From the sequence record PQ505080.1: a stretch of 64,000 nucleotides of DNA; one strand, 5' to 3'. This document shows positions 55,444 to 56,208 of the stretch, piece after piece (position 1 is the stretch's first letter; the number at the start of each line of letters is the position of its first letter). The DNA is from Escherichia phage HMD-6. The notes beneath the pieces were generated by a model that saw only the letters and a list, made by a program, of their open reading frames with translations, made no database searches and was not told the DNA's origin. The position numbers and the translations under genes are program-made.

Positions 55444-56208
55444 TTGAAATTTATCTACAAAGAACACCACCACAAAGGTGTTGTGTGGAGTCTATTTGAT
55501 GGGTCTGGTGGTGCAGTCATTGACTGGGCAAAAGCTGGGTATCTGTGCCTGTGCTTTAATGCAGAAGGTGCTGACCACGGCAGTTATGCGGAGGTGATAA
55601 CCGATCACCCCAATATTCACTATGTGGATTATTGGATTGATCCGTGGTTCCCTCAGGAAACTTTTTGCATGTATCCTGCTCCAGACTTTATTCTTGCGTT
55701 TCCTCCGTGCACGCATTTGGCGGTATCAGGTGCTGCACATTTTAAGAAAAAGCTGGCTAAGGATCCTCTGATCCAAATTAATGCTGTAAAAGATGCTCGG
55801 GTTGCAGAAGAGTTGGGAGAGATTTACGATTGCCCGTGGCATGTAGAGAACCCTGTAGGGGTTATGTCCACACTGTGGCGAAAACCTGATTATCGTTTTC
55901 ATCCTTCTGATTATGGCGGGTATTTACCAGAAGATGATGTAAACCCATGGTTTCCTGAATTTATAGCTCCACGTGATGCCTATCCAAAAATAACTTGCGG
56001 CTGGATAGGTAATGGATTTATAATCCCCGCCACAAAACCTGTCCCGCAAATAGTTGATGTGGTTAGTGGTTATTCCATGCAACACGCCAAGCTAGGTGGA
56101 AAGAGTGCAAGAACTAAGATGATTCGAAGCCTCACACCACGTGGCTGGGCAAAAGCTGTATTCTTAGCAAACGAGCCTGTAGTAAGGAGCAGAATTAATG
56201 GGAAGTAA
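55444..56208 (+). CDS. C5-cytosine methyltransferase-like protein (short, atypical)
   Basis: Motif I 'LFDGSGG', motif IV-like 'FPPCTHLAVSGA' (Pro-Cys, with Thr in place of the usual Gln), motif VI 'VENPVG'. Track ORF from 55414 (inside the terminator); TTG at 55444 with AGGAGA RBS preferred. About 254 aa, too short for a canonical target-recognition domain. Confidence 0.5.
   Translation: MKFIYKEHHHKGVVWSLFDGSGGAVIDWAKAGYLCLCFNAEGADHGSYAEVITDHPNIHYVDYWIDPWFPQETFCMYPAPDFILAFPPCTHLAVSGAAHFKKKLAKDPLIQINAVKDARVAEELGEIYDCPWHVENPVGVMSTLWRKPDYRFHPSDYGGYLPEDDVNPWFPEFIAPRDAYPKITCGWIGNGFIIPATKPVPQIVDVVSGYSMQHAKLGGKSARTKMIRSLTPRGWAKAVFLANEPVVRSRINGK

Follow-up and report, generated by a model that had tools for sequence, protein, structure and literature searches.

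The 64,000-nt stretch of Escherichia phage HMD-6 analysed here (sequence record PQ505080.1; this whole stretch is referred to as the window) represents an rV5-like Vequintavirus. On its plus strand, at 55444..56208, it carries a gene which codes for a compact protein with motifs of DNA cytosine-5 methyltransferases. We consider it highly likely that the product is an active orphan enzyme which depends on S-adenosylmethionine (SAM) and methylates phage DNA in a site-specific manner. This assessment draws on the protein family to which the sequence belongs, on its predicted fold, and on the reported activity of a homologue from phage K42. The gene itself is an ordinary and already known one, being annotated in more than 100 near-identical phage genomes and having a characterised family member.

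The compact phage enzyme family PHROG 757

An earlier note, made from the sequence alone, had described a short C5-methyltransferase-like gene at this position. The gene proved to be real: the coding sequence specifies 254 amino acids and contains the motifs LFDGSGG, FPPCTH, and ENP where they had been placed. The protein matches the PHROG 757 profile ("DNA methyltransferase") with an E-value of 9.1e-87, residues 2-251 being aligned to positions 5-226 of the 247 profile positions. This match places the gene in a large family of compact enzymes of phages, as its representative in Vequintavirus. Relatives were detected by tblastn in 1,503 phage records, the hosts of which include Escherichia, Klebsiella, Salmonella, Vibrio, Xanthomonas, and Arthrobacter. 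A word-indexed search returned 3,544 protein clusters related to the HMD-6 protein, and an exhaustive profile search against clusters at 50% identity returned 2,040 at E <=1e-3 and 931 at E <=1e-10.

The HMD-6 protein has the complete family signature (FDGSG, PPC(T), ENP, WRKPD, YGGYLP.DD, K.TC.W.GNGF, and GGKS.RTK.IRSLTPRG). Alignments of 21 and 32 family members contain 43-52 invariant columns; the Cys of PPC, the ENP motif, several residues of WRKPD, the K.T..W..F block, and the GG..TK.IRSL.PR block are invariant across the family. The earlier note had singled out the short length and the Thr which follows the catalytic Cys. Both features are true of the protein but are not peculiar to it, as they are the family norm. 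The median length in the family is 234 residues. A PC...EN pair was recognised in 99 family representatives, of which 86 have Thr directly behind Pro-Cys, seven have Asp, three have Glu, and none has Gln. A Pro-Cys-Asp sub-branch was encountered at 21 of 80 IMG/VR loci (L012-L024 and related loci, on contigs of ca 52-55 kb; P0026, P0045), and its members have a variable loop of the version "LFRPV...".

The homologue with reported activity is the Dcm of phage K42, which is KarlJaspers-like. In KarlJaspers itself (Bas06, MZ501090), the 711-bp gene bas06_0055 codes for a protein which is 54% identical to the HMD-6 protein over 235 aligned residues (E 3e-86). The K42/KarlJaspers enzyme shares PPCT, ENP, WRKPD, and RSLTPRG with the HMD-6 protein, has 236 compared to 254 residues, and is also encoded near a putative helicase gene. 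According to a preprint on retron Ec86 (Eco1), all four of four K42 escape mutants were hit in the 711-bp dcm gene or just upstream of it, and expression of K42 Dcm was toxic only when the retron was present (bioRxiv 10.1101/2023.08.16.553469). In the same study, mass spectrometry coupled to liquid chromatography (LC-MS) revealed a high level of 5-methylcytosine (5mC) in the multicopy single-stranded DNA (msDNA) of the retron with wild-type K42 Dcm, but not with a C82A/E128A/K175A/K176A variant. C82 corresponds to Cys89 (PPCT) and E128 to Glu135 (ENP) of the HMD-6 protein; K175 corresponds to a conserved Lys, and K176 is replaced by Ile. Defence by Ec86 was lost when CCTGG in the msDNA stem was changed to AATGG, ACTGG, or CATGG, and a Dcm of this kind was found to be encoded by 34 of 35 Ec86-sensitive phages (bioRxiv 10.1101/2023.08.16.553469). 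Because the KarlJaspers/K42 Dcm is a Pro-Cys-Thr member of PHROG 757, one such member has thus been reported to function as a DNA methyltransferase which generates 5mC. Later papers treat the triggering of Ec86 by Dcm as established. The preprint has reportedly since appeared in a journal (Wang et al., Cell Rep 2024, doi 10.1016/j.celrep.2024.114857).

Predicted fold, catalytic motifs, and the recognition insert

The link to canonical C5-methyltransferases emerges from the family rather than from the single sequence. When the HMD-6 protein alone was compared to the PDB sequences, only motif I matched, to HaeIII (E 1.1). When the family profile was used, motifs I-IV were aligned to DNMT3B (E 0.16) and to M.HaeIII (E 0.29). 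In the profile alignment, PCNDLS of DNMT3B stands opposite PCTDLA of the family. As DNMT3B has PCN, even genuine DNA C5-methyltransferases can lack a Gln behind the catalytic Cys, and this residue thus does not define the superfamily. The Pfam profile PF00145 (DNA_methylase) is matched weakly, at E <=1, by 21 of 32 family members. Three siblings (P0054, P0068, P0069) even pass its gathering score (24.7-28.5 bits compared to a cut-off of 22), the matches covering motifs I-IV only.

An AlphaFold2 model computed on the family alignment has a mean predicted local distance difference test score (pLDDT) of 89.3 and a predicted template modelling score of 0.89. The predicted model has the C5-methyltransferase fold, and the best structural matches identified by Foldseek are the catalytic domains of DNMT3A and DNMT3B (top E-value 4e-7). 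These domains are thus closest in fold and carry Pro-Cys-Asn, yet they show only 12-16% sequence identity to the HMD-6 protein. DNMT3A and DNMT3B have regulatory domains and partners, and the similarity does not imply that the phage enzyme reads CpG or oligomerises in the DNMT3 manner.

The fold is that of DNA and tRNA C5-methyltransferases. Three other readings of the gene were considered. The enzyme might act on free dCMP or dCTP and thus supply a modified base to replication, a role for which only the position among replication genes speaks and which we regard as extremely unlikely. Known dCMP-modifying enzymes have a thymidylate-synthase-like fold instead; the K42 homologue, when expressed alone in E. 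coli, methylates existing msDNA; and the restriction sensitivity of the Vequintavirinae (see below) argues against a full replacement of cytosine. It is very doubtful, too, that the enzyme naturally works on RNA (m5C in tRNA, as DNMT2 does) or that catalysis has been lost and the protein serves as a DNA-binding factor. A third reading concerns the cofactor, which could be other than SAM, for example carboxy-SAM from the host CmoA, so that 5-carboxymethylcytosine would be written as by phage CmoX. CmoX indeed ranks high among the structural matches of the model. It is a phage DNA cytosine C5-carboxymethyltransferase (PDB 8yf3; PMC12783734) which is defined by SPPC and Arg350 and is usually encoded next to a phage cmoA gene. 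The HMD-6 protein has FPPC rather than SPPC, the annotation of the syntenic 25 kb of phage MaxTheCat lacks a cmoA gene, and 5mC was what LC-MS detected for the K42 homologue. A carboxy-SAM-dependent activity is thus considered very improbable.

For a site-specific DNA cytosine-5 methyltransferase, the motifs can be assigned as follows, all on the plus strand. Motif I, the SAM-binding loop LFDGSGG (residues 17-23, 55492..55512), was aligned to its counterparts in DNMT3B and HaeIII, and almost no variation is seen at G20, S21, and G22 in the family alignments. Motif IV, FPPCTH (residues 86-91, 55699..55716), contains the predicted catalytic nucleophile Cys89, and its counterpart in both DNMT3B and E. 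coli Dcm is the PC motif; P87, P88, and C89 do not vary, and conservation reaches at least 90% at T90. Motif VI is ENP (residues 135-137, 55846..55854), with E135, N136, and P137 being invariant. WRKPD may replace motif VIII (QxRxR). A motif IX-like RSLTPRG (residues 228-234, 56125..56145) aligns with RRLTPRE of E. coli Dcm and is followed by a C-terminal helix; R228, S229, L230, P232, and R233 are invariant.

By analogy to the canonical C5-methyltransferase reaction and to the characterised K42 homologue, the FDGSG loop would bind SAM and Cys89 would attack C6 of a flipped-out cytosine, the base of which would be contacted by Glu135. The methyl group would then be transferred to C5 and the enzyme released.

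An insert of ca 67 residues (residues ~155-221, 55906..56106) separates the catalytic core from motif IX and is a candidate for a minimal target-recognition region. Within it, YGGYLPEDD..P.FP...RD.Y.K.TC.W.GNGF is highly conserved and precedes a variable loop (residues ~196-215), of which several versions occur across the family ("GYS" in the HMD-6 protein, "NPGW" in K42, and others). In the AlphaFold2 model, the pLDDT of the insert is mostly 92-98 but drops to 73-82 in this loop. The earlier view that the protein leaves little room for a target-recognition domain was thus overstated: ca 70 conserved residues between ENP/WRKPD and RSLTPRG would accommodate a small DNMT3-like element. Recognition of a short DNA site would fall to this insert instead of a large target-recognition domain, similar to the role of the small recognition loop of DNMT3A and DNMT3B.

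A small recognition insert could also belong to a DNA C5-methyltransferase of very relaxed or very short specificity, which would methylate most cytosines throughout the genome. Such an activity would fit the fact that DNMT3A and DNMT3B, the closest solved folds, read only a dinucleotide, and that a site has not been mapped for any family member. Dense 5mC is expected to block at least some of the type I, II, and III restriction systems. The Vequintavirinae, however, were reported to be "exceptionally susceptible" to all six systems of types I, II, and III which were tried, and genome-wide cytosine modification is disfavoured for this reason. (In the Drexlerviridae, according to the same restriction-sensitivity study, the presence of methyltransferase genes was not connected in a simple manner with resistance to restriction.) Furthermore, single changes in the CCTGG of msDNA abolished triggering by the K42 enzyme, and the strong conservation of the insert is as expected for a defined site. 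We thus consider relaxed specificity to be unlikely. The earlier note had preferred a genome-wide or nucleotide-level activity to a sequence-specific methylase, a preference which is not supported, as the traits on which it was built are family-wide and a homologue generates 5mC on DNA in a CCTGG-dependent manner.

Points against the assignment and the recognition site

Several observations weigh against a site-specific, possibly Dcm-like, DNA cytosine-5 methyltransferase. The HMD-6 protein itself has no match in Pfam or NCBIfam, and PF00145 is absent even at E-values up to 10. Compared to the classical C5-methyltransferases (Dcm, M.HhaI, M.HaeIII; PF00145), Thr stands in place of Gln, and neither a large target-recognition domain nor motif X (GNxV) could be recognised in the sequence. 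E. coli Dcm has 472 residues and is specific for CCWGG, whereas the HMD-6 protein is about half that length and shows no significant similarity to it (best BLASTP E-value 1.2; hhalign probability 0.3%, PC motif only). The resemblance between these two proteins is limited to the PC motif and to RSLTPR compared to RRLTPR. Because of this lack of similarity, "Dcm-like" is, as far as can be judged from sequence, a functional label and not a statement of orthology.

Further points concern the transfer of function from the homologue. Activity was measured on the K42 protein, the variable loop of which differs from that of the HMD-6 protein: K42/KarlJaspers is a siphovirus of the Drexlerviridae with an NPGW loop, whereas the window stems from a Vequintavirus myovirus with a GYS loop. 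For the K42 enzyme, CCWGG was taken to be the target on the grounds of the enzyme's name and of the msDNA mutants rather than by mapping (bioRxiv 10.1101/2023.08.16.553469). Strain MG1655, the host used in that study, carries its own dcm gene, yet 5mC in msDNA is low when the phage enzyme is absent. The phage enzyme may thus differ from host Dcm in its site, in the cytosine which is methylated, or in the form of the substrate. Finally, CCWGG is the most depleted of the 512 strand-symmetric pentamers in the window (92 occurrences compared to 143.9 expected, ratio 0.64, z -5.7), which is unexpected if the phage fully protects CCWGG.

The depletion was also considered as a readout of specificity but was rejected for this purpose. 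The ratio for CCWGG across 80 IMG/VR loci with a family gene ranges from 0.38 to 0.81 in large myoviruses, compared to 1.1-1.3 in several siphoviruses, and thus tracks phage lineage, not loop type; in KarlJaspers, CCWGG is not depleted (125 observed, 121.9 expected, ratio 1.03). The window avoids GTAC, CTAG, GGCC, CCGG, and ACGT as well, while AGCT, TCGA, and GATC are not avoided. CCWGG depletion may therefore reflect a general avoidance of restriction sites. TCWGG/CCWGA is among the most enriched pentamers in the window. This could reflect C-to-T decay, although the Markov model itself produces part of the enrichment. When the literature on rV5-like phages was searched for methylomes or restriction digests, annotation-level statements only were found.

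There is some room for a family which is not Dcm-like in its specificity, a view we regard as possible though clearly the less probable one. The enzymes would then be minimal DNMT3-like C5-methyltransferases which read another or a shorter site, another cytosine within CCWGG, or hairpin or single-stranded DNA, and the target of GYS-loop enzymes may differ from that of NPGW-loop enzymes. If true, a specificity unlike that of Dcm would explain why msDNA is nearly unmethylated by host Dcm while the phage enzyme triggers the retron. A GYS-loop target unlike the NPGW-loop target would fit the avoidance of CCWGG by a phage which carries the enzyme.

For the favoured site-specific methyltransferase of phage DNA, we envisage that newly made phage DNA would be methylated at specific sites during replication, since the gene is located in the replication block and is probably coupled to the primase/helicase gene (see below). 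The site is perhaps CCWGG-like, by analogy to the K42 enzyme. The phage would likely gain protection against a small group of cognate restriction enzymes, and protection from some particular restriction system is plausible. There would also be a cost, as shown for the K42 homologue: methylated retron msDNA can trigger the abortive defence of Retron-Eco1 (Ec86).

Gene limits, genome context, and biological significance

The limits of the coding sequence (55444..56208, TTG start, TAA stop) are based on the open reading frame (ORF), on the PHROG 757 match, and on the annotation of phage MaxTheCat. A ribosome-binding site (AGGAGA, 55432..55437) can be read from the sequence 6 nt upstream of the TTG. 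In the six-frame ORF list, the ORF extends over 55414..56208 (+) and opens at a GTG. We did not accept this GTG at 55414 as the start codon: it is located inside a hairpin, no ribosome-binding site precedes it, and the annotated coding sequences of orthologues begin at the TTG. The hairpin in question is G+C-rich with an 11-bp stem and is followed by a T run (55397..55422, +); it resembles a terminator and is located between the upstream ORF and the methyltransferase gene. A putative sigma-70-like promoter (TTGACA-17-TACAAT, 11 of 12 positions matching the consensus; 55348..55376, +) is located within the end of the upstream ORF. Both the promoter and the terminator-like element were found by a consensus scan, the latter also by inspection of the sequence, and a promoter match with a terminator-like hairpin directly 3' of it (55348-55422, +) is an odd order. 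In the paper on the related phage CB7, similar promoters were noted across its helicase-methylase-polymerase region.

The placement among helicase and primase genes, which the earlier note had pointed out, is borne out by the annotation of the neighbourhood. A PIF1-like helicase gene (52434-53804, +; Pfam) is followed by four small ORFs (53801-55392, +; 112, 100, 131, and 160 aa), none of which has a Pfam match and which are annotated as hypothetical in MaxTheCat. The methyltransferase gene comes next and is followed by the gene for a DnaB-like primase/helicase (56198..58276, +; Pfam DnaB_C and AAA_25). The ATG of the latter overlaps the methyltransferase stop by 11 nt, a layout also found in MaxTheCat, and translational coupling of these two genes via the overlap is likely. 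The next gene, from 58335, codes for a family-A DNA polymerase (Pfam). Gene order in MaxTheCat is rIIA/rIIB, DNA helicase, four small hypothetical genes, methyltransferase, primase/helicase, and DNA polymerase, and thus the neighbours are the same as in the window. In unrelated groups of phages, too, relatives of the methyltransferase are found beside genes for helicases or for replication.

The polymerase gene is split by a group I intron at 60749-61036 (+), which was identified by a full-length match to the Rfam model RF00028 (75.6 bits, E 3.8e-19). The exon ORFs which it separates are located at 58335-60764 and ~61084-61440, both on the plus strand. A split polymerase gene is already known for the genus, as MaxTheCat annotates it as a two-piece join.

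At a nucleotide identity of at least 90%, the methyltransferase gene is present in 116 phage records, typically with 95-97% identity. Nearly all of these are rV5-like Escherichia phages (YP-6, FV3, rV5, MaxTheCat, and others). The orthologues from rV5, FV3, YP-6, and MaxTheCat show 98-99% protein sequence identity, have the same gene limits and the same neighbours, and do not differ in any substantive way. Annotations vary among the records ("hypothetical protein", "DNA methyltransferase", "site specific DNA methylase", and "Dcm-like C5 cytosine methyltransferase"). The last of these is the name given in BASEL phage records such as those of MaxTheCat and KarlJaspers. In MaxTheCat, it is used for bas57_0072, which has the same 765-bp coding sequence limits with a TTG start. 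Compared to this gene, there are 31 synonymous and only two non-synonymous differences, corresponding to a ratio of non-synonymous to synonymous substitution rates (dN/dS) of 0.016. This substitution pattern indicates that the methyltransferase gene is functional and under strong purifying selection. Sixteen records labelled "Campylobacter phage", 15 of them with the host given as C. jejuni, carry the gene at a nucleotide identity of at least 90% to E. coli rV5-like phages; for "Campylobacter phage A140" (MG065674.1), the protein is 98% identical. Wrong labels or contamination seem a better explanation for these records than true Campylobacter phages.

About 235 residues seem to be enough for a working DNA C5-methyltransferase, and the PHROG 757 family would be a useful minimal scaffold if the recognition site were mapped. 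Triggering of Retron-Eco1 illustrates that cytosine methylation by a phage can backfire. Information on the phages with an active copy, and on its target, would help to predict the host range and the defence sensitivity of therapeutic rV5-like phages.
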